Source: an uncultured bacterium (GTDB taxonomy: Bacteria > Patescibacteriota > Minisyncoccia > Phycocordibacterales > DATDWN01). From it: a stretch of DNA of 64,000 bases. This document shows, piece after piece, positions 3,420 through 58,971 of the stretch. Under the pieces are notes generated by a model, which was not told the DNA's origin, did not search any database, and worked only from the letters and a program-made list of their open reading frames with translations. Numbering within the stretch: position 1 is the first letter of the stretch; each line of letters opens with the position of its first letter. The DNA is taken from NCBI GenBank assembly GCA_963727715.1, contig CAVSGX010000004.1, positions 8,455 through 72,454 of the forward strand, written 5' to 3'. Position numbers and translations under genes: made by a program.

Positions 3420-3440
3420 TGAATAACTGAGCCAACACAT

Positions 3441-3476
3441 ACAAAAAATACCGCCTAGGCGGTATTTTTTGTTTTG
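3441..3476. terminator. Bidirectional rho-independent terminator between convergent genes
   Basis: Hairpin 'aataccgcctaggcggtatt' has an A-tract on one side and a T-tract on the other. It lies between the HTH gene end (3419) and the gatB end (3486). Confidence 0.6.
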
Positions 3477-3485
3477 TCATTTGTC

Positions 3486-4910
3486 TTACTTATTCAATAT
3501 TTCCAAGATGATCTTTTTCAAAATCTCCGGGTTAGCGCTACCTTTGCTTGCTTTCATCCCCTGCCCCACAAAAAACTGCAGAACCGATTCTTTACCGGAT
3601 TTATAATCGGCAACCACTTTTGGGTTTTCTAAAATTATTTCTTTTATTATTTTATTTAATTCTTCTGAATCATTTTTCTGAATTAAATTTTTCTCTTTGA
3701 CAATTTGTTCTGGCTTCCCACCAGATTCAAACATCATTTTCAAAATATCTTTGACCCCGCGAGAAGAAATATTTCCTTTCTTTTGCATTAAAATAAGTTG
3801 TTTAAAAGTAGTCGGAGTCACTTTACCGAAATCAAAATTACTTTCTCCAAAAGATTTTGAAAGACCCAATAAGTCGGATGTAATGTAGTTTGAAAAAGTT
3901 TGTAAAATATTTTTATCGGATATTCCTGTGGTTGCCTCTTCAAAAAACGTCGCTACTTTCGGGTTGTTGATGTAGACTTCCACATCTTCTTTTTTCAACC
4001 CTAAATCAGTCTCAAATCTTTTTCTTTTTTGCCATGGCAGTTCCGGCAATTCAGCTTTTAATTTTGCAATAGAAAATTCCGGTATTTCTGAAATGATTAA
4101 TTTTGGCAGATCCGGTTCCGGAAAATATCTGTAATCATGAGCAGATTCTTTTGATCGTTGGGAAAAAGTAATGCCTTTATTTTCATCAAAACCGCGAGTT
4201 TCTTGAACGACTTTTTCTCCCCTCTGAAGAAGAGATTTCTGTCTTTCAAATTCATATTCCACAGCCCGGCCTGCAGACCTAAAAGAGTTTATATTTTTAA
4301 CCTCTACTTTTGTGCCGAAAATATCAGAGTTTGAAATGGAAATATTTACTTCCACTCGCATTTCACCTTTTTCCATATTGGCGTCGGAAACTTGTAGGTA
4401 CTGTAGAAGCAATTGTAATTCTTGAGCAAACTTCATCACCTCTTCGGCTGAATGAATAACCGGTTCAGTTACCAGTTCTAGGAGTGGCACGCCGGCTCTG
4501 TTGTAGTCTACCAAACTGATATCCTTTGTATCGTGACTGGACCTGGCTGTATCTTCTTCAAGGTGGACGCGAGTCAACTTCACCCCGCATAGTCCCCCAC
4601 CGGAAACCAAAGGATATTTATACTGGCTGATTTGATAGCCTTTCGGTATATCCGGATAAAAATAATTCTTGCGATCAAACTCGGTAAAATCAGCCAAGTC
4701 GCTGCCGAGAGCTACGCCAACAAGCAAAACTTTTTTGACCGCCGATTTATTTATAACCGGCAAGGTGCCGGGATAACCCATACATATCGGACAAATATTT
4801 ATATTAGGTTCTTTCTCGTCCGGCACATTCAGACAACCACAAAACATCTTGGTTTTTGTCTTCAGTTCGGCGTGAATTTCCAGCCCAATAGTTATTTTGT
4901 AATCCTCCAT
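3486..4910 (-). CDS. gatB: Asp-tRNA(Asn)/Glu-tRNA(Gln) amidotransferase subunit B
   Basis: The N-terminus 'YKITIGLEIHAELKTKTKMFCGC' and the overall length are typical of GatB. Confidence 0.9.
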   Translation of the reverse strand: MEDYKITIGLEIHAELKTKTKMFCGCLNVPDEKEPNINICPICMGYPGTLPVINKSAVKKVLLVGVALGSDLADFTEFDRKNYFYPDIPKGYQISQYKYPLVSGGGLCGVKLTRVHLEEDTARSSHDTKDISLVDYNRAGVPLLELVTEPVIHSAEEVMKFAQELQLLLQYLQVSDANMEKGEMRVEVNISISNSDIFGTKVEVKNINSFRSAGRAVEYEFERQKSLLQRGEKVVQETRGFDENKGITFSQRSKESAHDYRYFPEPDLPKLIISEIPEFSIAKLKAELPELPWQKRKRFETDLGLKKEDVEVYINNPKVATFFEEATTGISDKNILQTFSNYITSDLLGLSKSFGESNFDFGKVTPTTFKQLILMQKKGNISSRGVKDILKMMFESGGKPEQIVKEKNLIQKNDSEELNKIIKEIILENPKVVADYKSGKESVLQFFVGQGMKASKGSANPEILKKIILEILNK

Positions 4911-17002: not shown

Positions 17003-17067
17003 ATAATATCACTTTAAAAATCACTTTAAAAATGCTAGGATTGCATATAACAAACTAATAAAAATCT

Positions 17068-36654: not shown

Positions 36655-38508
36655 TCAATGCTGTTCAGGTTTATTTTTATCAATTGTGTCGTCCACATTA
36701 AGCACTTTACGCAAAACCTCTTCCGGCACTTCTTTCCCCGACGCTGGCGCGGCTGGGGTTTGGACGATTTCTTTTTTAATTCCGGGTTTTATTTCCGTTT
36801 TTATTTCCGGTTTATTCATAACTTGAGACAGAGCATTTTTCAAACTGGAAATATTTTCCACTGTCGGATTTTTTTTATTTTCACTTGAATTCAGAGTAGA
36901 TAATGAAGCTGTTTGCGCAGTTGGAGGATTCTTATTTGAATCTACTGGTTTTCTCTGCGAAAAAGATTTGTTGCGCAAATCTTCGGTGGCTTTTATAAAA
37001 GCCAACTTATTAGGATCAGGGGTTGCAATTGTTGGAGTATTGTTCTGGTTGTTATATTTCTCTTTCTCACTGAAAGGCTTGTTAAAAATCGGACGATTGT
37101 CGACGCTTCGCTGAGGAGATGCCGGCGCAGATAAGGGCATAGGCGAAAAGCTGGAACGTCCTGTTCCTATATTTCCGTCGCCTTGCCCACCACCAGCCAT
37201 TTTGTCTCTTTGGGCCGATGTCCCCTCTTCATGCCATTTTTTTATTTCTGCCTCGACTTCGCCCCGTGGTCGGGTAAACTGTTTCCACGAGCTTTCCATA
37301 ACTTCTTTTTTGAATGAGACATCCGGCCTAGTAATCGGTGGCATAGTGACAGCTGAAAACGGCGCTGAAGAAACTTCATCGATCATCAATTTCAAATAAA
37401 TTTGGTATTTGCCAAGATTGACCAAATCTTCGGCGGTGAAAGTTGGAGCGAATTCTTTTTCCAAAACTTCAGCATCAAAAGCGCCGACTCGAAATGTGAC
37501 CATGGTGCCAACGTTGCCGAAAACGGCGTCGCGCACTTCCTCTTCCATTTGCTCAATGTACTGATGTGTGATGTTTAAACCTAATTTGTACTTGCGGGCT
37601 TCGGACAAAATGTCGGCAAAAGATTTGTTGGCGAAAGATTGAAACTCGTCCACATACAAATAAAAATTCGGCAGTTTGGCTAATTGCTCTTTGTTTTTGT
37701 CCGCTCGAGACATGGCCGCCAAGTATATTTTTGTGATAAGCATTGAACCAATGAGGTTGGCATTGCCCTCACCAACAAGCCCTTTGGACAAGTTGATGAG
37801 CAATATCTTTTTCTCATCCATAAAATCGCGAATGTCAAAAGATGATTTCGGCTGGCCGATTAAATTTCGGACAAGCGGGTTTGATGTGAATTGTCCGACT
37901 TTGTTTTGAATAGCCGGTGTGGCTTCGGCTGCGTATTTGTCGGTGTATTTGGCAAATTCCTCCGTCCAAAAAGTTTTGACCGATGGATCTTTGATGTTCT
38001 CCACCACTTTTTTGCGATACTCTTTGTCAGCTAACATTCGATTAACACCAAGAAGTGTGGCACCCGGATATTCCAAGAGCGCCAAAAGAGTGTTGTTTAA
38101 AATGTAAGCCATGCGAGCTGACCAAGCATCCACCCAGATTTTCTCAAACGTGGACATGAGGCCGTTGACCACCAGATGTCTTTTGTCCACACCAATATCT
38201 TCCAAGACATTGAAAGAAACTGGATGTTCCAAATCAAATGGCGCGAAATAAAGCACATCTTTGATGCGATTTTCCGGGATGTAATCCAGCAGTTTTTCGG
38301 CCATTGAACCGTGCGGATCTATGACGGCGATACCGTTGCCATTTTGAATATCCTGGATGGCCATATTTTCCAAAAGATTGGACTTGCCAACGCCGGTTTT
38401 GCCGATAACATAAACATGACGCAAGCGATCGCTTTCTTTGATACCAAAACGGATTTTTTTGTTGCGAGCGTCCGTTTCGGCAAAATATGTGATGGGGTTT
38501 GGGTCCAT
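36655..38508 (-). CDS. Type IV secretion/conjugation coupling-protein-like ATPase (VirD4/TraG/TraD-like, TrwB-type ATPase domain) with low-complexity C-terminal tail
   Basis: Walker A 'VIGKTGVGKSNLL', 'VIDPHG', and 'YLYVDEFQSF'. Confidence 0.6.
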   Translation of the reverse strand: MDPNPITYFAETDARNKKIRFGIKESDRLRHVYVIGKTGVGKSNLLENMAIQDIQNGNGIAVIDPHGSMAEKLLDYIPENRIKDVLYFAPFDLEHPVSFNVLEDIGVDKRHLVVNGLMSTFEKIWVDAWSARMAYILNNTLLALLEYPGATLLGVNRMLADKEYRKKVVENIKDPSVKTFWTEEFAKYTDKYAAEATPAIQNKVGQFTSNPLVRNLIGQPKSSFDIRDFMDEKKILLINLSKGLVGEGNANLIGSMLITKIYLAAMSRADKNKEQLAKLPNFYLYVDEFQSFANKSFADILSEARKYKLGLNITHQYIEQMEEEVRDAVFGNVGTMVTFRVGAFDAEVLEKEFAPTFTAEDLVNLGKYQIYLKLMIDEVSSAPFSAVTMPPITRPDVSFKKEVMESSWKQFTRPRGEVEAEIKKWHEEGTSAQRDKMAGGGQGDGNIGTGRSSFSPMPLSAPASPQRSVDNRPIFNKPFSEKEKYNNQNNTPTIATPDPNKLAFIKATEDLRNKSFSQRKPVDSNKNPPTAQTASLSTLNSSENKKNPTVENISSLKNALSQVMNKPEIKTEIKPGIKKEIVQTPAAPASGKEVPEEVLRKVLNVDDTIDKNKPEQH

Positions 38509-38660
38509 AATCGTTTATTATTATATCACAGATGATTAAAATCCAAACCACTAAAAGCTCGCCTGATTTTGCTCCGCAAAATCAGAAAGTAAAGAAAAAT
38601 TCAAAATTCAAAAACAAAAGAAAAAACAAATCGACAAGAGACAAGCTACCTTTTTGGAAA

Positions 38661-39650
38661 TCACAAGAACGAGCGGGAGAGGCGACCACCCAGAGGCGGA
38701 TGGGAACTGGACGGAGCATCGGCACGGACACCGAGCCGGGAACCGGCGGGGTTCCAATAGGCGCAGACGACACGAAAGGAAGATGGGGCGGTTTTGTCAG
38801 GGTTTGGCACTTTAGACCCGGGCAAAGCGGTCCAGTAGTATAGACCATCTTTCTCGTTTTTGGTGTCTATGTGCTTGCCTGTTTGTTCAAAGATTTTTCT
38901 TTGCAGGATGAGATAATCGGACAGAGTTAGAGATTGGTTCGGAGGCAAGGAGAGAAAGGTTTCAATCTTTTTGTTCAGAGTTTGTTTAAGCTCTGATTGT
39001 TGCCAGAGTTCTTGACTGTGGACTAGAACGATTCTTCTTTTTTTGTCTTCTATTACTCCTTCAAACCCGCCACCCGAGTTGAAATTGCTTCCGGTGTATG
39101 TTTCGTTGTATCCTTCCGACATTTTAGCGTTTAGGTCTGTCAGGTTTGGCAGAGTTTCCGGAATGAGCAGGATTGTGTCAAAACCGTGTTTTTCTATTTC
39201 TTCTCTGATTTGGTCAATGTTTCTTTCCCAGATGTTTTTCATCGTCTCGGAGAAGTCTTTCGGTCTGTCTATGGAGTGGGTTGTGTAAAAGGAAGTAAAG
39301 TATTCTATTTCTTTTTCAATATCTATGGTTATGGTTTCTTTCTTTTCTTCAGTGGTTGTTTTGCCGGTTTTTTCGTCTTTTGTCTCTTCGATATGTTTGT
39401 ATTCCACTTCTAGAGTTGTTGAGGATTTGCCTTCTATCTTTCTTTTGAGAGAACGGCATTGGGAGAGTGTTTCTTTGATTTTCAGGCTTAGTTCTTTCTG
39501 TTTCTCTGTATCTCCGCTCTCAATGGCTTTTAGGAGTTTATCTTTCATTTCTTCGGCCTGAGAGAGCAGGCCTTCCATTACGGTCAAGTCGGCCAGAGCT
39601 TGTTCTTTGGTTGGTGGAGAGTTTGGGATTTTGGGAGATTCGTGGGACAT
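38661..39650 (-). CDS. DGR target protein 1 (C-type-lectin-fold-like C-terminus carrying VR1)
   Basis: C-terminus 'GFRVVCAYWNPAGSRLGVRADAPSSSHPPLGGRLSRSFL'. About 97% nucleotide identity to the gene at 40671..41660, except in the variable repeat. Confidence 0.8.
   Translation of the reverse strand: MSHESPKIPNSPPTKEQALADLTVMEGLLSQAEEMKDKLLKAIESGDTEKQKELSLKIKETLSQCRSLKRKIEGKSSTTLEVEYKHIEETKDEKTGKTTTEEKKETITIDIEKEIEYFTSFYTTHSIDRPKDFSETMKNIWERNIDQIREEIEKHGFDTILLIPETLPNLTDLNAKMSEGYNETYTGSNFNSGGGFEGVIEDKKRRIVLVHSQELWQQSELKQTLNKKIETFLSLPPNQSLTLSDYLILQRKIFEQTGKHIDTKNEKDGLYYWTALPGSKVPNPDKTAPSSFRVVCAYWNPAGSRLGVRADAPSSSHPPLGGRLSRSFL
38673..38771 (-). repeat. DGR variable repeat VR1
   Basis: It aligns to the template repeat at 43071-43177. 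All but one difference fall at template-repeat adenines (coding sense). Confidence 0.8.
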
Positions 39651-39666
39651 AATGGATGGATGATAA

Positions 39667-40347
39667 TCAGTCTAATTTTATTAATTTCTTTGTCAGAACA
39701 GGAATTTCTTTTTGAAAAAAAGTTTTGACCGAATTCCAATCAGCGTCAAAAAAGATGACCGGCTCTGGATCGCTTTCGGCATCGTCAAAATAAACCATAC
39801 TTTTCAAGATATGGTGATAGTCGTGAGCCACAGACGGATACTGTCCCGGCAATCGTCTGATAATATTTTCCAGCGGTTCCACATTTTTGGCGCACCAGTA
39901 CAAATCAAAGAAATCTCTTTTTCTGCCTCTTTGCGAGCTGGCGATTATTTTCATCACGGCCACATCCGTTTTATTCAAAATTTTGACAAAACCGTATTCC
40001 AAAAATTTTTGTTTTGGAATAAAAAACGGATAAGCGATAAAACTGATTTTGGTGTCATACAATACGCCATATAAAGTGTTTGGTTCATCAATATCCGTGC
40101 TCCAATTTTCATTGCTTGCAAAACGAGATAACAGTTTCTTTGTTATAAAACTTTTTTCTGTGGTAAAAAAATCCAAATCAACAGATTTGCGATTGCCGGC
40201 CTGCAAAGCTAAGGCGGTGCCACCGGCCAGATACCAGCCTGATTCACTCAGCCATTCTTGGGTTGATAAAAAATCCAGAGCTGTTTTGGTTGATTTGGGT
40301 AAACATGAAAAGTTGATGATATTTAATTTTGAAGTGTCAGTGTCCAT
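39667..40347 (-). CDS. Nucleotidyltransferase AbiEii/AbiGii toxin-family protein
   Basis: 'WYLAGGTALALQAGNRKSVDLDFF'. Confidence 0.7.
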   Translation of the reverse strand: MDTDTSKLNIINFSCLPKSTKTALDFLSTQEWLSESGWYLAGGTALALQAGNRKSVDLDFFTTEKSFITKKLLSRFASNENWSTDIDEPNTLYGVLYDTKISFIAYPFFIPKQKFLEYGFVKILNKTDVAVMKIIASSQRGRKRDFFDLYWCAKNVEPLENIIRRLPGQYPSVAHDYHHILKSMVYFDDAESDPEPVIFFDADWNSVKTFFQKEIPVLTKKLIKLD

Positions 40348-40547
40348 AATGCTTTTGTTCTTGGTCTCAAAGACCGTGATGCAGAAACAACTTTTCTCAA
40401 CAATGCCTTGTCATAAAAATTCCAAAGCCAGCGAACCTCATTATCCCTGCCAAAATCTAAAATTCTCTCAATTATATATTGAGCGTTTTTTTCAGTGTCA
40501 ATTCTGCTGACATCGGTGTCCCAAAACAAAGATTGTCTAAATGGCAT
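40323..40547 (-). CDS. Small conserved partner protein of the AbiEii-like nucleotidyltransferase (putative antitoxin-like)
   Basis: Overlaps the AbiEii start by 25 nt. 'LFWDTDVSRIDTEKNAQYIIERILDFG...WLWNFY...SRSLRPRT' pattern. Confidence 0.45.
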   Translation of the reverse strand: MPFRQSLFWDTDVSRIDTEKNAQYIIERILDFGRDNEVRWLWNFYDKALLRKVVSASRSLRPRTKALWTLTLQN

Positions 40548-40670
40548 ACCTTCATTATATCAAATTTTGAGACAATATTCAACAAAAATCAAAATGCAAA
40601 AATAAAAAATTCAAAATTCAAAAACAAAAGAAAAAACAAATCGACAAGAGACAAGCTACCTTTTTGGAAA

Positions 40671-41660
40671 TCACAAGAACGAGCGGGAGAGGCGACCACC
40701 CAGAGGCGGATTGGAAATGGACGGATCATTGGCAACGACATTGAGCTGGGAACCGTCGGGGTACCAATGGGCGCAGACGACACGAAAGGAAGATGGGGCG
40801 GTTTTGTCAGGGTTTGGCACTTTAGACCCGGGCAAAGCGGTCCAGTAGTATAGACCATCTTTCTCGTTTTTGGTGTCTATGTGCTTGCCTGTTTGTTCAA
40901 AGATTTTTCTTTGCAGGATGAGATAATCGGACAGAGTTAGAGATTGGTTCGGAGGCAAGGAGAGAAAGGTTTCAATCTTTTTGTTCAGAGTTTGTTTAAG
41001 CTCTGATTGTTGCCAGAGTTCTTGACTGTGGACTAGAACGATTCTTCTTTTTTTGTCTTCTATTACTCCTTCAAACCCGCCACCCGAGTTGAAATTGCTT
41101 CCGGTGTATGTTTCGTTGTATCCTTCCGACATTTTAGCGTTTAGGTCTGTCAGGTTTGGCAGAGTTTCCGGAATGAGCAGGATTGTGTCAAAACCGTGTT
41201 TTTCTATTTCTTCTCTGATTTGGTCAATGTTTCTTTCCCAGATGTTTTTCATCGTCTCGGAGAAGTCTTTCGGTCTGTCTATGGAGTGGGTTGTGTAAAA
41301 GGAAGTAAAGTATTCTATTTCTTTTTCAATATCTATGGTTATGGTTTCTTTCTTTTCTTCAGTGGTTGTTTTGCCGGTTTTTTCGTCTTTTGTCTCTTCG
41401 ATATGTTTGTATTCCACTTCTAGAGTTGTTGAGGATTTGCCTTCTATCTTTCTTTTGAGAGAACGGCATTGGGAGAGTGTTTCTTTGATTTTCAGGCTTA
41501 GTTCTTTCTGTTTCTCTGTATCTCCGCTCTCAATGGCTTTTAGGAGTTTATCTTTCATTTCTTCGGCCTGAGAGAGCAGGCCTTCCATTACGGTCAAGTC
41601 GGCCAGAGCTTGTTCTTTGGTTGGTGGAGAGTTTGGGATTTTGGGAGATTCGTGGGACAT
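40671..41660 (-). CDS. DGR target protein 2 (tandem paralog of target 1, carrying VR2)
   Basis: The 329-aa protein is identical to target 1 until the C-terminal ~30 aa ('VVCAHWYPDGSQLNVVANDPSISNPPLGGRLSRSFL'). Confidence 0.8.
   Translation of the reverse strand: MSHESPKIPNSPPTKEQALADLTVMEGLLSQAEEMKDKLLKAIESGDTEKQKELSLKIKETLSQCRSLKRKIEGKSSTTLEVEYKHIEETKDEKTGKTTTEEKKETITIDIEKEIEYFTSFYTTHSIDRPKDFSETMKNIWERNIDQIREEIEKHGFDTILLIPETLPNLTDLNAKMSEGYNETYTGSNFNSGGGFEGVIEDKKRRIVLVHSQELWQQSELKQTLNKKIETFLSLPPNQSLTLSDYLILQRKIFEQTGKHIDTKNEKDGLYYWTALPGSKVPNPDKTAPSSFRVVCAHWYPDGSQLNVVANDPSISNPPLGGRLSRSFL
40683..40781 (-). repeat. DGR variable repeat VR2
   Basis: All but one difference from the template repeat fall at template-repeat adenines. 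Confidence 0.8.
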
Positions 41661-41672
41661 GGAAGTATTCTA

Positions 41673-42700
41673 TCATGTTATAACAATATCATTCAATATT
41701 GAAGTCAGTTTGTTTTTTAATCCAAATGAATCGCAGTGTTTCAGTAAAGCAAAATAAGACTGAAAATTATTCTTGTTCATTCTTTCAAAAATTTTTTGCT
41801 TGGTTTTATCTCTCAATAAAAGACAATCTGGCAAAGTCAGAGATCCTAGAAAATCTACTCCCCATTTTAATTTTCTGATTGAGATTTTATCATCCGGGAT
41901 TTGCAGAAACAGTTTTGCCATAAATTTTTTAATTTCAACCAAACAAAACCCCAATCTTTTTTTATTTTTATTTACCAAAATAAAATCGTCGTTGTATCTT
42001 ATATAAAATCTGGCGTTTAATTTTTTCTTCACAAAATGGTCAAAATCGTTCAAATAAATGTTGGCGAAAATCTGGCTGGTGATGTTGCCGAGCGGGATGC
42101 TTTTGTCAGAGCCATGAAGCGAGCAAAAACTTTCTACTATTTTCCCCACTTCCAAAAAAATATTTTCATTTTTCACTTTTCTTTTGATAAATTTCAGCAG
42201 TAGGCGGTGGTTGACACTTTCAAAGTATTTTTTGACATCGCATTTTAAAATAAAAACATCCCCATTTTTTCTTTTCGCCAATCCATTGAAATATTGGAGA
42301 GTTTTGACGGCTTTATGCGTTCCTTTTCCGTCTCTGGATGAATAACGGCTTTATGCGTTCCTTTTCCGTCTCTGGATGAATATGAGTCGGCAATAAATGC
42401 CGGCTCAAATAGATTTTTCAAATAATCGGATATTATTTGATGAATAATTCTATCTTTAACTTCAGCTTTGTGAATATTTCTTTTCTTGTTGTCAGTAACA
42501 ATAAAATGCGAATACCCGCCATGGCGGTAAGTTTTGTTTTTCAGATCTCTGTGCAAATCAAAAATATTGTCTTCCAAATGTCTTTCAAAAATCATTACAT
42601 CCATCTTGGAGGACTTTCCCCGCCGAAATTTCCGCCAAGCTGAAAATATATTATCAAGACTGAATAATTCGTTATAATTTTTATGGAACAAGACGCTCAT
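41673..42700 (-). pseudogene. DGR reverse transcriptase, frameshifted by a 38-bp tandem duplication (split into ORFs 42245..43024 and 41673..42281)
   Basis: 'RNIHKAEVKDRIIHQ', 'FIADSYSSRDGKGTHKAV', 'ILKCDVKKYFESVNH', the DGR-specific 'IPLGNITSQIFANIYL', and 'YIRYNDDFILV'. Deleting one 38-nt copy restores a single frame ('...HKAVKTLQYFNGLAKRKNGDVFILKCDV...'). Confidence 0.8.
42307..42382. repeat. Perfect 2 x 38-bp tandem duplication inside the RT gene
   Basis: 'acggctttatgcgttccttttccgtctctggatgaata' appears twice in tandem. Confidence 0.85.
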
Positions 42701-43057
42701 AAAATTGAAAAATTGGAAATGCCTATTATGGCCAAACTCTTTATCATTTACGAACTGACGCACAAGCTTATTTTCAAATTGCCGAAATTTGAAAGATACA
42801 CTTTGGGTGAAAAAATTGAAAATATCATCTTGGAAACGATTGAAATAATTGTCATCGCCAATGGGACGAACAAATACGAAAAAGAAAAATATTTGCTCAA
42901 AGCCAATGCCAAAGTGGAAATGCTTAAGTTGCTTTTTCGCATCGTTTTGAACTGCCAAATCATTGATTTCAAAAAATATTTGGAGGCGGAAGGGTTGCTT
43001 CAAGAAATCGGCAAAATGGCGCAAGGTTGGATAAAATACACCAGAAACGCAAAATAG
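42683..43057 (+). CDS. avd: Avd-like accessory variability determinant (four-helix-bundle / 23S-rRNA-IVS protein family)
   Basis: 'KLPKFERYTLGEKIENI...KANAKVEMLKLLFRIVLN...LQEIGKMAQGWIKY'. It sits on the opposite strand to the RT and the targets. Confidence 0.7.
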   Translation: MEQDAHKIEKLEMPIMAKLFIIYELTHKLIFKLPKFERYTLGEKIENIILETIEIIVIANGTNKYEKEKYLLKANAKVEMLKLLFRIVLNCQIIDFKKYLEAEGLLQEIGKMAQGWIKYTRNAK

Positions 43058-43070
43058 CTTTTGTATAAAG

Positions 43071-43177
43071 CAAGAACGGCGGGAGAGGCGACAACCCAGA
43101 TTCGGATTGGAATTGGACGGATCATTGGCATTGACATTGAGCTGGGAATTGTCGGGGTTCCAATTGGCGCAGACGAC
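43071..43177 (-). repeat. DGR template repeat (TR), non-coding, coding-sense on the minus strand
   Basis: It carries AAT/AAC at every position that varies in VR1-3, and lies directly next to avd and the RT. Homology to each variable repeat begins across the region matching the target stop codon. Confidence 0.8.
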
Positions 43178-43484
43178 TGCGGTCGCCCCTCGATTAGCTT
43201 TGCGTCGTCATTTCCGTTTGGAAACAAGACTCTATTTATTAGGGGCTACTTCCCCCTGACGCAAAACTGCTGTTCTTGTGTTTTATTTCCACAAATCAAC
43301 GACTATTTGGTTTCTAAAATTCAGAAACCATCTTTCGCCGTCAATTAGCGCTTCGGCAAACCAACTCATCACTGATGGCTTACGAGCCGAAGCGGGCGAT
43401 TTTTGCTTCGCAAAAATAAAAAATTCAAAATTCAAAAACAAAAGAAAAAACAAATCGACAAGAGACAAGCTACCTTTTTGGAAA

Positions 43485-45512
43485 TCACAAGAACGAGCGG
43501 GAGAGGCGACAACCCAGATTCGGATAGGAATAGGACGGATCATCGGCACCGACAACGAGCTGGGAATAGCCGGGGTCCCAATGGGCGCAGACGACGCGGA
43601 AACCGCCGGATGGATTTTTGACTGTTGAGCCGGGTAGCCATGTCCAACCGTCTTCATCCAAATGTTTGCCTGTTTGTTCAAAATATTGCTTTTGATACAA
43701 CAAATAATCTGTCAGAGACATTTTTTCACCTTGCGATATAAACTCCTCGGCTTTTTTATTCAGAGTTTTCTTCAGTTCCGAATGGTCTTTCAGATTTTGA
43801 GCGCTGTTTTTATGAATCAAAACGATTCTTCTTTTTTTGTCTTCTATTACTCCTTCAAACCCGCCACCCGAGTCGAAATTGCTTCCGGTGTATGTTTCGT
43901 TGTATCCTTCTGACATTTTTTTATGTATATCGGTTATGGTCAATCCTCCGGGCACAAGCAAAATCTCATCAAAACCATATTTTTCTACTTCTTGTTTTAT
44001 CTCGTCATAATTGTTCACCCATATATCCGCCATTTCTTCCGCAAATGATTCCGTCAATTCAATTTCGTGAGCTTTATAAAAAAGAAGAGAATCCTCAAGT
44101 TTTTTGTCAAAATTTATTTCTATTTTCTCTTTCTTTTCTTTGCCTTTCTCGTCCACGATTTTGTGTTCGGCAGAAACCACCGGTTCAAACGAACTGCCGG
44201 TCAATTCTCTTCTTTTACTTCTGAAAAATTTCTCCAAATCGGCTATTTCATTTTCAATCTTCTCTATCCCGTCCGCCGGACTTTCGGTTTTACCACCTTC
44301 AGGAATTGCCTCAGCAGACGCTTCTTTTTCTTCTTCGTTATTTTTCTTTTTTCTTTTCGTTCCTTTGCGTTTGGAATCTTTGGTTTCTATTTTGACTTCA
44401 ACCAATCGGATGATTTCTTCCAATTTTGTTCTGTCTTCGGCGCTTTCCAGTCTGTTGACATAATAATATTTCAGGGCTTTTTGAAAAGTTTCGCTGATGT
44501 CGCCATTGTAAAAACGCAAAACAAAATTTCTGACCCGCCTCGGCTCTTCGCGGTCGTCATAGGTGAAAACTTGTGGTTGATCTTCGGCGATTTGCCTGTT
44601 TTTCAAAAGTTCTTTGGCGGTTTTGTGAAATTCCTTGTATTTTTCCAAAATTTCGGCAATGCCTGGAATTTCCGAAAGTTGTTCCTGCGTCAAACCACCG
44701 GCGCCGGATAAAAACATATCATCAGGCAATTCGGCGGTTTTCTTTTCCAAACCGTTCTCTAAACCAAACAATGCACCAGTCGCTTGCTTAAAGGTCTCTT
44801 CCGGTAATTCATTTGGCATTTTTTTATAAACCCATCTGCGAAGCTGAGCTGGATCAAGTGGCTTTCTATCCAAATAACCGGCTCCCGGAGGATTCATAAA
44901 AGCGATGATTTTGGTTTTTTGTTTAGAAACTTTAACTGTTTCCGAAGCGTCTTCTGACAAAATGACATCGCTATCACGCTCCAGAGAATCCAAAACTTCA
45001 TGCAAACGAATCAAAATGTTCGGCGCCGATGAGTTGAATTCGTCCAAAACAATAATTTTGACTTTACCGTCTTCCTGTCGTAAACCGCTAGTTACTTTTC
45101 CGTCGGCGAAAATGTATTCCGGGTCTTCCGCATTATTTTTACGAGGATTTGGTATATATCGGCCCATCAAATCCTCCACATCCGTGGCACCGTTTAAGTT
45201 TATGTAATGAACTTCGTAGCCGAGCTCACTGGCCATTTTTCGCACCGTGGTGGTCTTACCAAAAGATGTTCCGCTTTCCACGGCAATAGGGTCGCCCATG
45301 GAAAACGACACGGCGATGTCACGTTGCAGTGGCAGAGCCACTTCGGTATCATTGGTGTAGTCCTTGTAATTTTCTCTTCTTGGCACAAATTGGCCATTTC
45401 TGTTTTTAGCTTTTTCCAGAGTAACACCCATATAAGAAACACTCCCGTCAGTTTCCATTATCGGCTCCAGTTTTGCTTCCGGATTGTTAAATTGTCCTTC
45501 TGGTGTTTTCAT
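43485..45512 (-). CDS. DGR target protein 3: MoxR-like AAA+ ATPase N-terminal domain fused to the shared C-terminal lectin-like domain with VR3
   Basis: 'ESGTSFGKTTTVRKMASELGYEVHYINL' (Walker A) and 'IIVLDEFNSS' (Walker B). The C-terminal 150 aa are homologous to targets 1 and 2 ('GFRVVCAHWDPGYSQLVVGADDPSYSYPNLGCRLSRSFL'). Confidence 0.8.
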   Translation of the reverse strand: MKTPEGQFNNPEAKLEPIMETDGSVSYMGVTLEKAKNRNGQFVPRRENYKDYTNDTEVALPLQRDIAVSFSMGDPIAVESGTSFGKTTTVRKMASELGYEVHYINLNGATDVEDLMGRYIPNPRKNNAEDPEYIFADGKVTSGLRQEDGKVKIIVLDEFNSSAPNILIRLHEVLDSLERDSDVILSEDASETVKVSKQKTKIIAFMNPPGAGYLDRKPLDPAQLRRWVYKKMPNELPEETFKQATGALFGLENGLEKKTAELPDDMFLSGAGGLTQEQLSEIPGIAEILEKYKEFHKTAKELLKNRQIAEDQPQVFTYDDREEPRRVRNFVLRFYNGDISETFQKALKYYYVNRLESAEDRTKLEEIIRLVEVKIETKDSKRKGTKRKKKNNEEEKEASAEAIPEGGKTESPADGIEKIENEIADLEKFFRSKRRELTGSSFEPVVSAEHKIVDEKGKEKKEKIEINFDKKLEDSLLFYKAHEIELTESFAEEMADIWVNNYDEIKQEVEKYGFDEILLVPGGLTITDIHKKMSEGYNETYTGSNFDSGGGFEGVIEDKKRRIVLIHKNSAQNLKDHSELKKTLNKKAEEFISQGEKMSLTDYLLYQKQYFEQTGKHLDEDGWTWLPGSTVKNPSGGFRVVCAHWDPGYSQLVVGADDPSYSYPNLGCRLSRSFL
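43497..43595 (-). repeat. DGR variable repeat VR3
   Basis: Every difference from the template repeat falls at a template-repeat adenine. Confidence 0.8.
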
Positions 45513-45956: not shown

Positions 45957-48242
45957 TCAACCAACAACTTCTTTCTCAAGTATTTCTGATATATCTTTTA
46001 TTATTTTGTCCACTTTTATATTATCGGATTTTAGCGGGTAATAAATAAGCTTTACACCGCCGGCTTTTTCGATTTTGCCTTTAATTTTTTGAAAATCATA
46101 TTTTGAGCCGGGATGTTTAGTGGATTCAGCTGGTCTGTCATCCGAAAAAACAATCATTATTTTGTTGTCTGTTTTTTGTTTTGCAAGTCTTGCCGAAGCG
46201 GTTTCCATAGCCCAACCAATGTCGGTTTCATTATGCTCATTTCCGCAATTTTTGCAACAACTATCTTCAACCTCTTTAAACATTCCTCCCATGTGTTCCC
46301 TGATTTTTTTTGACATTGGCTCTCCAAATTTTTGATACTCGTATATATCATCATTAAAACCGTTAATTTCAACGTTCAATCCTAGTTTGTTTAATGCTTC
46401 AGCCAGCACAACTTTTGCTTTGAAATCTTCTTCAATTTTTTTACGCATAGAACCAGATAAATCGTTTAGAATGGAAATTGAATATTCTTTTTCATCTGGT
46501 TTTTCTCTTTTTTGCCAAGCGTTGCTTTCTATTGGCGAAATGCGTCTGGCTTTTTCCTGAATCCTTGTTTTTATATCAATTCTTTTGCCTATTCTAAAGC
46601 CCTTTTTCCATCTTGTGGTTTGGGTGTCAACAAATATCTGTCTTAGTTTATTTTCCAATTCATCAATCAGCGACGAAACTTCTCGTCGGTGCTTTTCATA
46701 AATATTTTCGTCTTTATTGACTTCTCTTTTTAATCTTTCTTTGTATATTCTCAATCCTTCCAAATCAAGAGGTTCTTTTCTTAAAGTTCCGGTTCTGACC
46801 GGAGCGCCGCCTTGATTTTGATTGTTTATTTCAACCCCTGGCAAATTTTCCGGCGGTTCTGGATTTTTTCTTTCTGCTTTTTCCTCCGGATTTTCAGTCA
46901 ATTTGCCTTCCATTTCTTCGTTTAGTTTGTCTTCAAATTCCTTCAGCGCTTTTTCGGCTCTGTCGGCCAGCTCTTTTTTCACATCTTCCGGAAGCGAGTC
47001 GACATAATCCCTTATTTTTTGTTTTATTTCGTCGGAAAGGTCGTTCAGGTTTATTGTCCTCGCACCGATATCGTCTAGCGTCTGTGGTTGTTCATTGCCG
47101 GTGTTGTCTTCGTGTGGAGTCGGCTTGTTTGTGATTTTATCTTCTCCCTGCCCACCTGTTGACATTGGTTTGATTTTTTCTTTCTCTTTTTTTGCTTCAT
47201 CAATAGCTTTGTCAATAGCATTTTCCAACGTTTTCTTTTCTTCTTCGGTTAATTTGTCTTCCAAATCTTTTGGCAGTTTTGATTTTTTTTCATTTTTTTT
47301 ATCTTCACTTTCTCCTTCCTGATTTCCGTTATCTTTTTGTCCATCACCACCTTCCTTCCCATTTTCTCTTTCTTGCTCTTTTTTCATTTCTTCCATCATC
47401 TTTTTCATCACATCTTTCAACACTTCTTCCATTTTCTCATCCTCTTTATCTGCTTCAACCAGTTTTTTAAATTCTGGCCAAATTTCTTCCAGATTTATTT
47501 CATACGACACTTTGGCGTATTCTTTTATTTTTTCTTCACTTTCATCCGCTTCCTCTCGCGACGGATATCGCCACCAAGAATCCTGAGCTGATTTCAGTGT
47601 GGCTAAAACAACAGCTTTGACTTCTTCGGGCAAATCTTCCGAAATTTCAAAATTCTGTCCCTGTTTTTCACGAAACCATTGTCTAATATATTCATACCCC
47701 GCTTGCACAAAACGCGGTTGGAAACCCAGTTTTTCGGTAGCTTCTTTCTTTTCTTTTTCTCTTTTGGCAAAAAAATCATCCCAAGCAAATTTTATATTTT
47801 CATCGTATTTCGGATAACTCTCGGAAACAAAGTTGTCGTTTCTGGGATCTTCAATGAAATTCATCATAGCTGAAAAGCCCGGTTGTCGCCATGTTTCAAT
47901 CGGAATAAAATCTGTTCTGGAAACTCGTCTATGTCCTCCTTCGTGACAAATTAAATATCTCAATAATTCAATTGGCTCCGTCAGCAGAGTTTTCGGGTCA
48001 ACTCTGATGACATTTTTTTGAAAATCCCAATGCCAGCCAGCGCCTGGTTGGTTTAGTTCTATCGGCATCTCAAAATCTTTGCCAATAAAATAAGCCAGAG
48101 ATGACAAAATATTTTTCTTGCGCAGAATTTCTTTTTGTTCTTCTTCGTTAAATCGCTTCAAGATTTCCTCTTCTGGATTTTGCCGGAGAGAATCGTAGGT
48201 TTGTTCGTTTTGATTGAATTTTGGTCCTTCCATAATTTGCAA
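45957..48242 (-). CDS. vWA-domain protein with N-terminal HExxH metallopeptidase-like motif and long acidic coiled-coil linker (MoxR partner)
   Basis: MIDAS motif 'ILNDLSGSM' in a C-terminal vWA fold. 'LICHEGGHRR' and an E/K-rich low-complexity middle. Confidence 0.6.
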   Translation of the reverse strand: MQIMEGPKFNQNEQTYDSLRQNPEEEILKRFNEEEQKEILRKKNILSSLAYFIGKDFEMPIELNQPGAGWHWDFQKNVIRVDPKTLLTEPIELLRYLICHEGGHRRVSRTDFIPIETWRQPGFSAMMNFIEDPRNDNFVSESYPKYDENIKFAWDDFFAKREKEKKEATEKLGFQPRFVQAGYEYIRQWFREKQGQNFEISEDLPEEVKAVVLATLKSAQDSWWRYPSREEADESEEKIKEYAKVSYEINLEEIWPEFKKLVEADKEDEKMEEVLKDVMKKMMEEMKKEQERENGKEGGDGQKDNGNQEGESEDKKNEKKSKLPKDLEDKLTEEEKKTLENAIDKAIDEAKKEKEKIKPMSTGGQGEDKITNKPTPHEDNTGNEQPQTLDDIGARTINLNDLSDEIKQKIRDYVDSLPEDVKKELADRAEKALKEFEDKLNEEMEGKLTENPEEKAERKNPEPPENLPGVEINNQNQGGAPVRTGTLRKEPLDLEGLRIYKERLKREVNKDENIYEKHRREVSSLIDELENKLRQIFVDTQTTRWKKGFRIGKRIDIKTRIQEKARRISPIESNAWQKREKPDEKEYSISILNDLSGSMRKKIEEDFKAKVVLAEALNKLGLNVEINGFNDDIYEYQKFGEPMSKKIREHMGGMFKEVEDSCCKNCGNEHNETDIGWAMETASARLAKQKTDNKIMIVFSDDRPAESTKHPGSKYDFQKIKGKIEKAGGVKLIYYPLKSDNIKVDKIIKDISEILEKEVVG

Positions 48243-49543: not shown

Positions 49544-49849
49544 TTAGAGTTGTTTGTCCTGGTTAGAAATTTCAGTGATCGTTTCAACTGTATCAGGTTT
49601 CGGTTCGGGTTTAGGTAAAATCTCCTCTCTCATCTCCGGTGCGCTTTCGCTCCAAATTGGAGTGATTTTTTCTCGGCGACGGCGAGGAATATTGTGACGG
49701 GGCAGAGAAAATTTAACCGAGAGTAAAATCAAACAGAGGCCGGAGATAACAGCCAAAAAAGTTCGGCCGGATGACGGCAAACCGAAAAAAGGAATGAGAA
49801 AAATAAATATCCCCAGAAAAAATGTTTTGTTGTTTTTTATCATATACAA
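49544..49849 (-). CDS. Small membrane protein, hypothetical
   Basis: Two hydrophobic helices and an Arg-rich loop. Confidence 0.35.
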   Translation of the reverse strand: MYMIKNNKTFFLGIFIFLIPFFGLPSSGRTFLAVISGLCLILLSVKFSLPRHNIPRRRREKITPIWSESAPEMREEILPKPEPKPDTVETITEISNQDKQL

Positions 49850-49971
49850 ATCTTAATATAAAAATGTGAAAATGAAAAGCTGATAGATATAAAAAGAAAG
49901 GCCCGGCGCTTGCGCACCAGGCCAGGATTCTTCGGGTCCCAACCGCCTCTCGTGAGAGAGGAAAGAACGAA

Positions 49972-50763
49972 CTAGACCGCGGCCGGCTCCTCAACTTCGG
50001 CGTCGTCGCCCGTCCAGCCGGCTCTCTCCAGGGCCGTTGCCATGATGGCAGTGCCATTGGGACCCGCTGGGTAACTCGCGTCTTCCTGGGCGACCGCCCC
50101 CGGCGAAGTGAATTTGCTGTCCGGGAATGGCTTCTTGTGACCGCCGCCACGTTGGTTGCTGGACGAATTCGGCAGGTGGTATTTGCCCTTGTTGTGAACG
50201 CTGTCCACCAGGCCCCACAGACTGTCGTCCGATTCCATCCGGTCGGCGTAAGCCAACTTGAGGAAACCGGCGATGTTCTTGAATTCATCTTCGCCGGCGC
50301 CGAGACCGAGAAGAGCGGCCAGAAGTCCCTGAACGGCGTAGAAGAAGTCTTCCGTGTCGCCGTGCGCCTTGGTCCATTCCGGCGCCTGCCAGGTCGGTTT
50401 CGCGAAGTCGTCCGAGAGTAGTCGATGGAGATAGATATCTCCGATTTCCTGGCGGTCGGTCAGCCTGATGAACTCCGGAATCGCCCCGACCCACAAACGG
50501 TTCGGGAACTTCGTGACGAATCTCACGGCAGCATCGACGCCCGCCGGGCACTCGATGGCCGCGAAGATCGTCTCAGTGCTCGTCATCACATCGGCCAACC
50601 TGACTGTGCCGGCGACGAGCCGGTCAAGGATAGAAACAGCCTCGACCGAGCGCCTCTCCCGATGTCGGAGGCTAGTAGCCTCCAAGGTCTCCTTGACAGC
50701 TTCATTTGGAGGCGGCATGACAGTGGCAGCCGCCTTAATCCTGCGGAGCAAATTCAATCCCAT
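49972..50763 (-). CDS. Hypothetical protein in a conspicuously high-GC island (likely horizontally acquired)
   Basis: The 263-aa ORF has roughly twice the local GC and an Ala/Arg/Gly/Pro-rich composition unlike its neighbours. Confidence 0.5.
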   Translation of the reverse strand: MGLNLLRRIKAAATVMPPPNEAVKETLEATSLRHRERRSVEAVSILDRLVAGTVRLADVMTSTETIFAAIECPAGVDAAVRFVTKFPNRLWVGAIPEFIRLTDRQEIGDIYLHRLLSDDFAKPTWQAPEWTKAHGDTEDFFYAVQGLLAALLGLGAGEDEFKNIAGFLKLAYADRMESDDSLWGLVDSVHNKGKYHLPNSSSNQRGGGHKKPFPDSKFTSPGAVAQEDASYPAGPNGTAIMATALERAGWTGDDAEVEEPAAV

Positions 50764-54296: not shown

Positions 54297-54353
54297 TTGG
54301 AGGACACACCTCCATTAAATAAAATATCACAATAAAATAATAAAGTCAAATTG

Positions 54354-54427
54354 TGCGCGTGCCAGGACTCGAACCTGGGACCTCGTCATTATCAGTGACG
54401 TGCTCTAGCCACCTGAGCTACACGCGC
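54354..54427 (-). tRNA. tRNA-Ile (anticodon GAT), no encoded CCA
   Basis: Minus-strand 'GCGCGTGTAGCTCAGGTGGCTAGAGCACGTCACTGATAATGACGAGGTCCCAGGTTCGAGTCCTGGCACGCGCA' forms a cloverleaf with anticodon loop CUGAUAA. Confidence 0.9.
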
Positions 54428-55170: not shown

Positions 55171-55864
55171 GATAACTTTCGTTTCAGGTTCCCTGAAGTT
55201 TTTAACTTCACCATATCGCTTCCCGTTATTCACGACTTTGGACGTAGCGAGCGGATTTCCCGCACTACGCGAGTTCGATAGTTTCTAGAACTAACGATTT
55301 TGTCCTTCATTTTGTTTTTCAACAAAACTACTACGACGCAGCTGACTTCCAGCACTAATTTTTGGAGTCAAGATTTTCACTTGACAAACACATTTTTTTC
55401 TTATTATTTCATAGGAGGTACTTCGTATGCACATATTTGAGGTTTTTGTATGTGTTGTTTTGGCAATCATGTTTCTTCCTTTGCCAATTTTCTTTTTGCG
55501 TTTTATTGCTTGTATAATAACTGATGCTGATTAAATCTAATCAGTTATTAGTCGACTTGAGTGATTTTGTCAAATCACTCTTTTCTTTTTCCAAAAATTA
55601 GTGCTGGATCTCCCAGGGTCATTTATATTTCTGTTCCAAACATCCGAATCGAGATTTTCGATAAGATTTATCGTGTGCTTCCTTCTGACTCACCGCAGAA
55701 GTCGCACATCTCTTTTTTTTGATTCGGCTGCTCTTTGCTACTAGGATCCTTCAGTCCAGTCATTGCTGATTGTGGACCTACCCGTTCGCTATTTTCACAC
55801 TCCTGTGAAAAGTTGGATTTGAACCAACTAGATATATAAACTGCCTGGCGCATTTTATTCTGAG
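55171..55864 (-). other. ~0.7-kb insertion (putative intron) in 16S after 'CTTGTAC' (E. coli ~1395), no homing endonuclease ORF
   Basis: The exon breaks after CTTGTAC and resumes at '...ATCCGCCCGTCAAGTCAGGGGAG'. Confidence 0.6.
55351..55605 (+). mobile_element. IR-flanked mini-element copy A (terminal IR 'AGCACTAATTTTTGGA') carrying an SD-led 35-aa hydrophobic ORF (55427..55534) and a terminator, antisense to the 16S
   Basis: Terminal inverted repeats at 55351-55372 and 55585-55605. 'ATAGGAGGTACTTCGT-ATG'. ORF 'MHIFEVFVCVVLAIMFLPLPIFFLRFIACIITDAD'. Hairpin plus 'TTTTCTTTTT'. Confidence 0.55.
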
Positions 55865-56099
55865 TACAAGACTTGAGAACGTATTCACCGCGGTATGTCT
55901 GACCCGCGATTACTAGCAATTCCAACTTCATGGGGTCGAGTTTCAGCCCCCAATCTGAACTGGGGCGACTTTTCTAAGGATTGGCTCAGGGTTACCCCGT
56001 CGCAACCTGTTGTAGTCGCCATTGTATTATGTGTGTAGCCCAAGGTATCAAAGGGACATGCTGATCTGGCGTCATCCTCGCCTTCCTCCCAGCTCCAGT

Positions 56100-56215
56100 T
56101 GCGCAAGATGAACGAACTCGGTTAAGACCGAATACGGACATCGATGTTTGCACAGAGAGACATCTACTTATGATGTTCTTGTGCAACTGGAGCTGGGCAG
56201 TCTCGCCTGATACTT
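56100..56215 (-). other. rRNA expansion segment: ~100-nt extra hairpin between 16S positions ~1114 and ~1173
   Basis: Perfect 21-nt inverted repeat 'ccagctccagttgcgcaaga...tcttgtgcaactggagctggg' inserted between conserved blocks. Confidence 0.6.
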
Positions 56216-56425
56216 ATAACAGACAACGAGGGTTGCGTTCGTTACCCCACTTAAGGGAACAATTCAAATCACGAACTGACGACGACCATGCATCACCTGC
56301 CTAACTGTCCTTGTGGGACCGCAAACGTTTCTGCTTGCATTCAGTTAGGTTTCAAACCTTGGTAAGATTCTTCGTTTATCATCGAATTAAACCACATAAT
56401 CCACTGCTTGTGCAAGTCCCCGTCT

Positions 56426-56457
<32 letters not shown>

Positions 56458-56641
56458 ACCCAGGCGCTTGACTTAACGCGTTAGCTACGCCACGCAGAGG
56501 GTCGATACTCCGCATAGCTAGTCAAGATCGTTTAGGGCGTGGACTACTGGGGTCTTAATGTTACTTCAAAATTTTGGGAAATTTTGAGGCACAACATTTC
56601 TGTTGTACTCTGCATGTTGCCATGCAGTTCGGACTATATCT

Positions 56642-57403
56642 TTATCTGTATGTATTCCACTTAGCTTTTTTCTTTTCATATTCTGCTATTATGACAGATT
56701 CTGAAAAATTACTAAGAGAAACCATTTCAGATATCCAGCGTTCTTGAAATTGAGAGTTTTTATATAGAAGAATTGCTTTGGATAACATGCTCGATACTGG
56801 TATGTATGGCAGTATGATACGCAAGAATTTTTTTAATTCTTCTTGTGACCTAATCCATAACCGCCAGTATTGTTCTTGCTTCCCATCTTGCTTACGCCCG
56901 ACGGGGGCAACAATGGCACGAACATCCCAAACAACTTTAAGATAGCGAGCTAGCATTTCGACTGATTGTTTTGAAAAACCATCAGTACAAAACACACCTT
57001 TTCTGGCGCCGTAACCAATAAGCGAACCGTCATCACACCACCAAACGGCGAGTGATAACGCTGTCATTTGATTAAGCCACCTACGCTCTATAAGCAATTT
57101 ATTTTGTTTGTGAGTTAAATGATGAAGTTCTGTAAGAGATGAAGTTCGCCTACTGGCAAATCTCCATTTTTTGTTCTTACTGTATCCATCAGGTTCCTGC
57201 ACAAACACACTGCTATCTCCTGCTATCTCTTTGAGAGCTTGCGCTTTCCATAAGAGATAATCTTTCTGCATTTCCGAATGACGAATTTGTAAATTCGCAT
57301 TGAAATAATTTTTTTGGATTTTTAGCGAGCCGTCTCCAAGGATTGAACCGAAGATAATAGCTTTCGCTTCATCCGACAAAGGCACATATTTCGTATCATG
57401 CAT
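56642..57403 (-). CDS. LAGLIDADG homing endonuclease (intron-encoded)
   Basis: 'GSILGDGSL' is a LAGLIDADG motif. It is on the same strand as the rRNA and inside the insertion. Confidence 0.8.
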   Translation of the reverse strand: MHDTKYVPLSDEAKAIIFGSILGDGSLKIQKNYFNANLQIRHSEMQKDYLLWKAQALKEIAGDSSVFVQEPDGYSKNKKWRFASRRTSSLTELHHLTHKQNKLLIERRWLNQMTALSLAVWWCDDGSLIGYGARKGVFCTDGFSKQSVEMLARYLKVVWDVRAIVAPVGRKQDGKQEQYWRLWIRSQEELKKFLRIILPYIPVSSMLSKAILLYKNSQFQERWISEMVSLSNFSESVIIAEYEKKKAKWNTYR

Positions 57404-57480
57404 ATAATTTTAAGTTAATTGCACGACGACAGAATAGCACCAACTATCTTACTCAATTTCATAGTCTCTACGGGGTTTCT

Positions 57481-57712
57481 AGCACTAATTTTTGGAGTCA
57501 AGCTTTGACTTGACAAGATTCATTTTATGATTTAACATCAATTCCAGGAGATTAACTCGATGGAATTTATTATGATATTGATCTGTTTAGGAGTTTTTTG
57601 TTTGATCACAGATATGATGATAACTGTTGCTATTGATATCTGTGAATGGATCGATCATTACCTGCACCGGCTTTTATAGCGGTGCAGTTTTCTTTTTCCA
57701 AAAATTAGTGCT
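57481..57712 (+). mobile_element. IR-flanked mini-element copy B carrying an SD-led 39-aa hydrophobic ORF (57560..57679) and a terminator, antisense to the 16S
   Basis: Same termini as copy A (57481-57502 and 57692-57712). 'CCAGGAGATTAACTCG-ATG'. ORF 'MEFIMILICLGVFCLITDMMITVAIDICEWIDHYLHRLL'. The stop codon sits in a terminator hairpin followed by 'TTTTCTTTTT'. Confidence 0.55.
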
Positions 57713-58971
57713 AGAAACTTCCCTCGGGGTTGTCCATACGAAATCAGTAAATTTCATATTGTATGGAGTTTCCCCGATATAGCTAGATTACAATTCTATG
57801 TCACCATAGAAAAGAGACACCTTCGTCCTATATTTTATTAGCGGGACTGGATTATCTAATCCCATTCGCTACCCACGCTTTCGTGTTTCAGTGTCAGGAG
57901 TGGCCCAATGTGCTGCCTTCGCTTTCGGTGTTCCCCATGATATCAACGGATTTCACCCCTACTCCATGAGTTCCACACATCCCTGCCATCCTCTAGTCGT
58001 GCCGTTTCGCTCGCACTTCCGGGGTTAAGCCCCGGGTTTTAACAAGCGACTAACACAACCACCTACACACCCTTTACGCCCAATAATTCCGGATAACGCT
58101 CGGGGCACTCGTATTACCGCTGCTGCTGGCACGAGTTTAGCAACCCCTTATTCTTGAGGTACTATCAATAAACTTTCTCCCTCACAAAAGATGTTTACGA
58201 CCCAGAGGGTCTTCATCCATCACGCGGCGTCGCTCGATCAGGCTTTCGCCCATTGTCGAATATTCTCGGCTGCTGCCACCCGTAGGTGTATGGACCGTCT
58301 CTCAGTTCCATCGGTGGGGGCCAAGCTCTCACTCCCCCTACGCGTCATAGCCTTGGTAGGCCGTTACCCTACCAACTAGCTGATACGACGCAGACTTTTC
58401 CTTTAGCGATAAATCTTTCCTCCGAAGAGAATATCAAGTATTACCTAATCTTTCGACTAGCTATTCCTGACTAAAGGGTAAATCTCTGCGCATTATTACC
58501 TCGTTCGCCACTGTCCTTGCGGACCGTTTGACTTGCATGCCTTATCCACGCCGCCAGCGTTCATCCTGAGCTAGGATCAAACTCTTAATAAAGATTTATT
58601 AAGATCTATCTTTTAAGAACGGAACAAAATAAAGGAAAATACTTTTGGTATCGCGATTATTTTATTTTTCTTTGATGAACACTGATTGTGTTTTTGGTTG
58701 ATTGTTATTGATGTTGTGAATTTTGCTGAATTCACTTTCCGGAATTATTTTAAAAGAATATTTTGCATCCGACTGTTTTTGACAAAACAGCCGAACTGTA
58801 AAACTTGCACGTTTTACATTCTCTAAATAAAGCCGACGTTTTCAGTCGGCTCCCCGACCTAATGCGTCGGGGTTCATTTTGATTGTCAACGAACTATCCA
58901 GTAAAGAAAATGCCTTTTGAGGCACCTAGATAGTATAGCCACGCCAAAGAAAAAGTCAAGTCAATCAGCGG

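Follow-up and report, generated by a model that had tools for sequence, protein, structure and literature searches.

Does the DGR in this stretch of DNA still have a reverse transcriptase (RT), or has the RT gene been broken by a short tandem duplication, and if so, is the duplication real and how old is it? The window, which here means the whole stretch of 64,000 nucleotides that was analysed, carries an RT gene that is read in two frames. We consider it probable that a fresh 38-bp tandem duplication knocks out the RT of an otherwise intact, typical CPR/Patescibacteria-type DGR, and that the YNDD box of this RT is normal for its clade.

Cassette anatomy and the 38-nt duplication

The cassette was found to run, in minus-strand order, from an AAA-ATPase target (with VR3) through the template repeat (TR), a divergent avd, the RT, target 2 (VR2) and a DUF6922/AbiEii pair to target 1 (VR1). 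The TR (43079..43177, minus strand) is 99 nt long and contains 21 adenines, each of which is the first or second base of its codon. The avd gene (42683..43057, plus strand) encodes 124 aa and matched Pfam bAvd with 64.5 bits (cut-off 40); it is divergent from the RT, and the 5' ends of the two genes overlap by 18 nt. All three target genes are on the minus strand. Target gene 3 (43485..45512) encodes 675 aa with an AAA_5 ATPase N-terminal part, and target gene 2 (40671..41660, no Pfam match) and its paralogue target gene 1 (38661..39650) encode 329 aa each. The three VRs, also on the minus strand, all end 12 nt ahead of the target stop codon, which means that they are C-terminal. VR3 (43497-43595) has 11 differences from the TR, all at TR adenines, while VR2 (40683-40781) has nine adenine-site differences plus T85G at 40697, and VR1 (38673-38771) has 15 plus T85G at 38687, so that with three VRs and one TR, 35/37 differences fell at TR adenines. 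The TR and the VRs have the GC-rich 3' end CTGGGT[T/G]GTCGCCTCTCCCGC in common and diverge immediately after it. Another hallmark of DGRs is IMH/IMH* with a GC-rich hairpin 3' of the VR; downstream of the VRs here, neither a GC-rich hairpin nor an inverted repeat of 8 nt or longer was found. There was no second RT, avd or TR within the 64-kb window.

The original prediction was that a 38-nt unit occurs twice in tandem within the RT gene, and we confirmed a perfect tandem pair of the unit ACGGCTTTATGCGTTCCTTTTCCGTCTCTGGATGAATA at 42307-42382, with zero mismatches. Copy 1 in plus-strand order (42307..42344) is the second copy in the RT reading direction, and copy 2 (42345..42382), which is 100% identical to it, is the first, the gene being on the minus strand. 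At the unit-to-unit junction, GGATGAATA is followed by ACGGCTTTA. The probability of a 38-nt match by chance is negligible. Identity at period 38 stops exactly at both borders of 42307-42382, so the duplication has no flanking microhomology, and no DNA hairpin significant enough to be its origin was found (z = -1.27). A tandem scan of the whole 64 kb for perfect units of 10-599 nt with a match run of at least 14 nt returned just one other perfect tandem duplication, a 12-nt case at 17008.

With 38 nt added, the frame moves by +2. Residues 1-119 of the RT are read in one frame (42700 to 42344) and residues 107-329 in another (42344 to 41676), both on the minus strand, and the RT motif 2 peptide YSSRDGKGTHKAV (aa 107-119, 13 residues) is encoded twice. 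The claim that the duplication shifts the frame of the DGR RT was therefore correct, and the tblastn segments showed that the two frames share these 13 duplicated residues. In the downstream frame, copy 1 encodes SSRDGKGTHKAV, which lies within RT motif 2. The N-terminal frame (42245..42700) starts with an ATG at 42700 and contains 119 native and 32 out-of-frame residues before a TAA; this 151-aa ORF reaches through RT motif 2, and the catalytic aspartates are absent from it. The C-terminal frame (41673..42344) contains residues 107-329 and the stop codon (41673-41675). A TAA lying just ahead of the second copy closes this frame, and the earliest start codon in it, a TTG at 42281, gives a 202-aa product (ORF 41673-42281, protein P0003). 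The ORFs 42245-42700 and 41673-42281 overlap out of frame. RT motif A (LKCDVKKYF, 42222-42248), the DGR signature LGNITSQ (42072-42092) and the YNDD catalytic box (41985-41996, which reads RYNDDF) are all on the minus strand in the C-terminal frame.

When one copy was removed, the ORFs fused as expected, and the deletion yielded ...GKGTHKAVKTLQYFNGLAKRKNGDVFILKCDVKKYF... just as the original prediction had stated. The repaired RT has 329 aa and matched Pfam RVT_1 (E = 2e-22), and its best solved relative was the Bordetella bRT (8ub7, E = 6e-28). The duplicated YSSRDGKGTHKAV aligns with YACRPDKGTHAGV of bRT, the peptide that makes up RT motif 2 of the fingers domain. RTs of the DGR clade are recognised by [I/L/V]GxxxSQ and a YxDD box, and the repaired RT has LGNITSQ and YNDD. 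A currently functional DGR also needs an intact translatable RT, and here the catalytic motifs are cut off from the native start. Judged by descent and anatomy the locus is a DGR, but the allele that was assembled is predicted not to function.

The YNDD box

The box was read correctly as RYNDDF in the original prediction, but RYADD, from which it was said to depart, turned out not to be the usual form. YNDD was present in 120/120 closest proteins (P0001-P0120, one of which, P0003, is the window's own C-terminal fragment). We also compared 84 related loci, 4 found via P0001/P0002 and 80 from GTDB genomes, and the box was YVDD in 47, YMDD in 23, YNDD in 10, YCDD in 2, YADD in 1 and FVDD in 1. 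The related loci with at least 50% RT identity had YNDD in 10/10 cases. In 150 representatives of distant clusters, with 32-52% identity to a close homologue, the x of YxDD was M in 51, V in 23, A in 20, C in 16, N in 13, G in 7, T in 5 and S in 5, with 2 FNDD and others, and the box of bRT is YMDD. The x residue thus differs a great deal among DGR RTs (V, M, A, C, N and others), and YADD is not the DGR norm. To judge from these alignments, YNDD is a normal, conserved trait of the clade to which the window RT belongs and no lesion, and it should not be annotated as a defect.

The populous Patescibacteria DGR RT clade with this box (P0001-P0120; loci L002-L010 and L031) has an invariant Asn at x of YxDD and also has Leu for Ile in [I/L]GNxTSQ. 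In other RTs, fidelity is tuned by the residue at x. No paper on YNDD in an RT was found in the searchable literature, and this invariant-Asn clade, together with the target paralogues that are apparently evolving in concert, is possibly a more useful by-product of the analysis than the knockout itself. A MAG labelled Muribaculaceae carries a distant DGR RT (L080, CAYNYX010000027.1; RT match 3001-4005) for which tblastn gave an in-frame stop at the Q of the signature, IGNYTS*.

Age, origin and reality of the duplication

For the ancestral state of the gene, the repaired RT was aligned with its 120 best database matches; one of these is the window's own fragment P0003, and the other 119 are full-length homologues. 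The segment around the duplication was 42 residues long in 98/121 aligned sequences and off by 1-3 residues in the others, and the repaired RT was colinear over this segment with the 119 full-length homologues. Neither the 119 nor the 84 related loci had a duplication or a frame split, here or elsewhere in the RT. The original prediction had named homologous RTs as the place to look for the same duplication; none of those compared has one, and the single copy is the ancestral state. In the columns with at least 95% conservation, the repaired RT deviates at 1/91, which equals the median of the homologues. Given two identical copies and a repaired RT that departs from only one of these columns, we take the lesion to be very young and to be the sole defect in the gene, and this agrees with the recent event that had been proposed.

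The target paralogues indicate that the DGR itself was active until very recently. The direct repeats 38595-39650 and 40605-41660 have 12 differences over 1056 nt, every one of them at a TR adenine within the VR, and such a pattern between otherwise identical paralogues argues that the DGR was active very recently. The T85G change is a G in VR1 and VR2 and a T in the TR and VR3, and its place is in the GC-rich 3' end, 8 nt past the final adenine of the TR. It may lie beyond the point of cDNA information transfer. Since the paralogues with VR1 and VR2 are identical except at the 12 TR-adenine sites, T85G is common to them by descent or gene conversion. That VR1 and VR2 share one non-adenine change had been noticed before, and this stands; its reading as a sign of inactivation does not, because the change is inherited between paralogues. 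Single non-adenine changes are common in CPR DGRs (PMC5758913).

The course of events that we favour is as follows. The DGR probably diversified its targets until very recently, and then a genuine 38-bp tandem duplication would have hit the part of the fingers domain that forms RT motif 2. A ribosome starting at the native ATG would add 119 native and 32 aberrant residues and then stop. The truncated fingers fragment ends upstream of LKCDVKKYF and YNDD, so cells with the duplicated allele would lack RT activity, and mutagenic retrohoming to their three VRs would cease, unless an RT encoded elsewhere in the genome acts in trans. The remainder of the element is intact. The locus would thus be a snapshot of a DGR just after RT knockout, with little import beyond this genome. 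For annotation, the RT of this genome should be labelled a frameshifted pseudogene, and catalogues of DGRs built from MAGs would include elements that are anatomically complete yet switched off.

Tandem duplications of this perfect kind are genetically unstable, and their reversion is precise. One copy of the pair can be removed exactly by replication slippage, and the knockout is therefore reversible in principle, which raises a second reading: the duplication may be one state of a recurring, reversible ON/OFF toggle of DGR mutagenesis whose alleles interconvert by slippage. If this were true, lineages could lock a favourable set of three variable proteins and later regain the RT by losing one copy. 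The intact rest of the DGR and its very recent diversification are in line with such a toggle, and the k-mer graph described below also fits an allele mixture. Nevertheless, we consider the toggle unlikely, because neither the 119 full-length homologues nor the 84 related loci had a duplication or frame split in the RT, the unit is outside any repeat tract and lacks flanking microhomology, one sample is the sole data point, and a fresh neutral or mildly deleterious mutation fits the data equally well. In contingency loci, the copy number of a tandem repeat likewise sets the reading frame, but the window has only two copies of a long 38-nt unit, and no tract is conserved in the 119 homologues or the 84 loci. 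The conserved repeat tract by which phase-variable loci are recognised was thus missing at this site, the homologues being colinear and the loci unsplit. As a mutation, the lesion is of the ordinary frameshift type, and nothing points to an evolved or programmed switch.

A third reading is that the duplication is a sequencing or assembly artefact and that the true genome has one copy and an intact RT, for example because contigs overlapping by 38 nt were joined end-to-end. A length of 38 nt equals k-1 at k=39, and this k-mer size is in use by some assemblers. The element was also found in no other dataset that would allow a cross-check. Exact-protein look-ups gave no record of the 202-aa ORF, the 151-aa N-terminal ORF or a 220-aa edge-truncated product, the last being the prediction for a Logan contig left of the duplication (predicted second break 42336). 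Look-ups with avd and AbiEii matched only in run ERR11594402 and in the window's own contig, the target-protein cluster contained only the two variants of the window, and the closest RT among 5.8 billion proteins was 68% identical. Neither the 38-mer nor a 27-mer (TR 3' end) had a match when JGI metagenomes were scanned.

The Logan assembly of ERR11594402 was more informative. Logan uses k=31, keeps each 31-mer once per accession and drops singleton k-mers (PMC12424806). Its contig L001 is 100% identical to window 42353-43439, and its first 30 nt are exactly the final 30 nt of the 38-nt unit. This 30-mer occurs twice in the window, where the next base is A (next unit) or T (flank), and it branches only if the unit-to-unit junction exists in the reads, so the junction must be present there. 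The other end of L001 is on a 30-mer that is common to 40596 and 43410. As a control, contig L086, which is 100% identical to window 39621-40625, has its start on the final 30 nt of the 1056-nt repeat and its end on the 30-mer common to 40596/43410. This analysis showed that 4/4 ends of the two contigs were where the repeat structure of the window predicts them, and the control indicated that contig ends in this run are set by 30-mer repeats. From the break of L001 at the predicted node, it follows that the junction k-mers occur at least twice in the ERR11594402 reads and that no contig-joining artefact is involved. This independent k=31 assembly, the exact identity of the Logan contigs and the lack of a second such duplication within 64 kb make an artefact highly unlikely, and the assembly-artefact alternative in the original prediction is largely excluded by the Logan contig ends. 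If ERR11594402 is the library behind the window contig, this support is independent of the assembler and not of the library. A general assembly problem was ruled out as well: the window contains 0 Ns and no comparable duplication, and the Logan contigs match it exactly. Every 31-mer of the single-copy allele also occurs in the duplicated one. The k=31 graph is therefore identical for a pure duplicated allele and for a mixture of one-copy and two-copy alleles, and the duplicated allele may be a minority or transient one.

It is hardly credible that a programmed -1 ribosomal frameshift yields a full-length RT with a 13-residue insertion, for although there are two candidate slip sites (GAA AAG in the second copy, where a -1 slip would return to the correct frame directly at GTHKAVKTLQYF, and the A-run GAAAAAAT further downstream), the canonical X XXY YYZ heptamer is absent, no stable RNA structure lies downstream (MFE z-score +0.19, with 105/200 shuffles folding at least as well), the insertion would double or scramble a conserved fingers motif, and the homologues (119 full-length, 84 loci) make no use of frameshifting; for want of a canonical slippery site and RNA structure, this candidate was rejected.

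Related systems and neighbouring genes

The closest parallels to the window were found in related loci. In L002 (MAG GCA_037134875.1, JBAXLH010000010) and also in L004, the genes are in the same order: AAA_5 target, divergent avd, RT, target, DUF6922, AbiEii and an identical second target. The RT of L002 and L004 is 63% identical to that of the window and intact, with 327 aa, YNDD and LGNxTSQ, whereas the window RT is broken. L003 has an AAA_5 target, a divergent avd and the same RT, and its contig stops just after the RT. L005 has an intact RT of 330 aa, 68% identical, and a divergent overlapping avd as in the window.

The three VRs of L002 (837-966, 3537-3666 and 5483-5612) are mutually 100% identical over 130 nt, with 12 differences from their TR, whereas the three VRs of the window differ; the identity in L002 could be VR homogenisation or repeat collapse in short-read assembly. 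The target paralogues of L002 (2701-3712 and 4647-5658) have 0 mismatches, and the target of the window is only 53% identical to that of L002. Judged by these comparisons, this suggests that duplicated DGR targets may undergo concerted evolution by gene conversion.

Most CPR DGRs have one architecture (B3), with frequent non-adenine substitutions and targets of the AAA/midasin type (Wu et al. 2018, PMC5758913), and Patescibacteria DGRs form a separate clade in Roux et al. 2021 (PMC8144416). The CPR DGRs of these studies (the "CPR set", B3, in PMC5758913; clade 2 in PMC8144416) are, like the window element, chromosomal with avd, TR and RT, and the window is a candidate member of B3. Both have multiple targets that include an AAA/midasin-like ATPase (UVR4 class) as well as occasional non-adenine substitutions; unlike CPR DGRs, the window has an RT that is frameshifted by a 38-nt duplication. 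The related RTs in GTDB genomes carried labels such as Taylorbacteria, Patescibacteria group and Saccharibacteria.

The fold and motifs of the BPP-1 bRT (8ub7) align with those of the window RT over residues 6-290 (E = 6e-28). BPP-1 and the window have [I/L]GxxxSQ, an Avd partner, adenine-specific TR-to-VR mutagenesis and a C-terminal VR in common. They differ in the box, which is YMDD in bRT and YNDD in the window RT, and in gene arrangement, since avd, TR and brt are co-oriented in BPP-1 but the window has a divergent avd placed between TR and RT. BPP-1 is phage-borne with one target, whereas the window element is cellular with three, and no GC-rich hairpin was found downstream of its VRs.

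Several neighbouring genes were also noted. Between the target paralogues (39667..40547, minus strand) are DUF6922 (40323-40547) and an AbiEii-like nucleotidyltransferase (39667-40347), a pair which resembles a toxin-antitoxin system and keeps its position in L002 (3756-4636) and L004 (3428-4308). The AAA_5 (MoxR/midasin-like) target at 43485-45512 is directly downstream of a 761-aa VWA/CobT_C (C-terminal) protein at 45957-48242. AAA-VWA is a classic gene pairing, and the ATPase of the pair here bears a hypervariable C-terminus. A TraG/TrwB-like T4SS coupling protein (T4SS-DNA_transf, TrwB_AAD_bind; 36655-38508, minus strand) directly adjoins the DGR cassette, which hints that the region may belong to a mobile or conjugative island.

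Elsewhere in the window, ORFs of 191 aa and 263 aa at 49713-50763 (minus strand) overlap by 317 nt in different frames, neither with a Pfam match, and the pair may be another frameshifted gene or include a spurious ORF. A tRNA-Ile(GAT) gene is at 54353-54427. The 16S rRNA gene (55812-58592, minus strand) gave two Rfam matches, 57762-58592 and 55812-56668, and the insertion that splits it encodes a LAGLIDADG_2 homing endonuclease (56642-57403). LAGLIDADG-type insertions in 16S rRNA genes are common in CPR bacteria.
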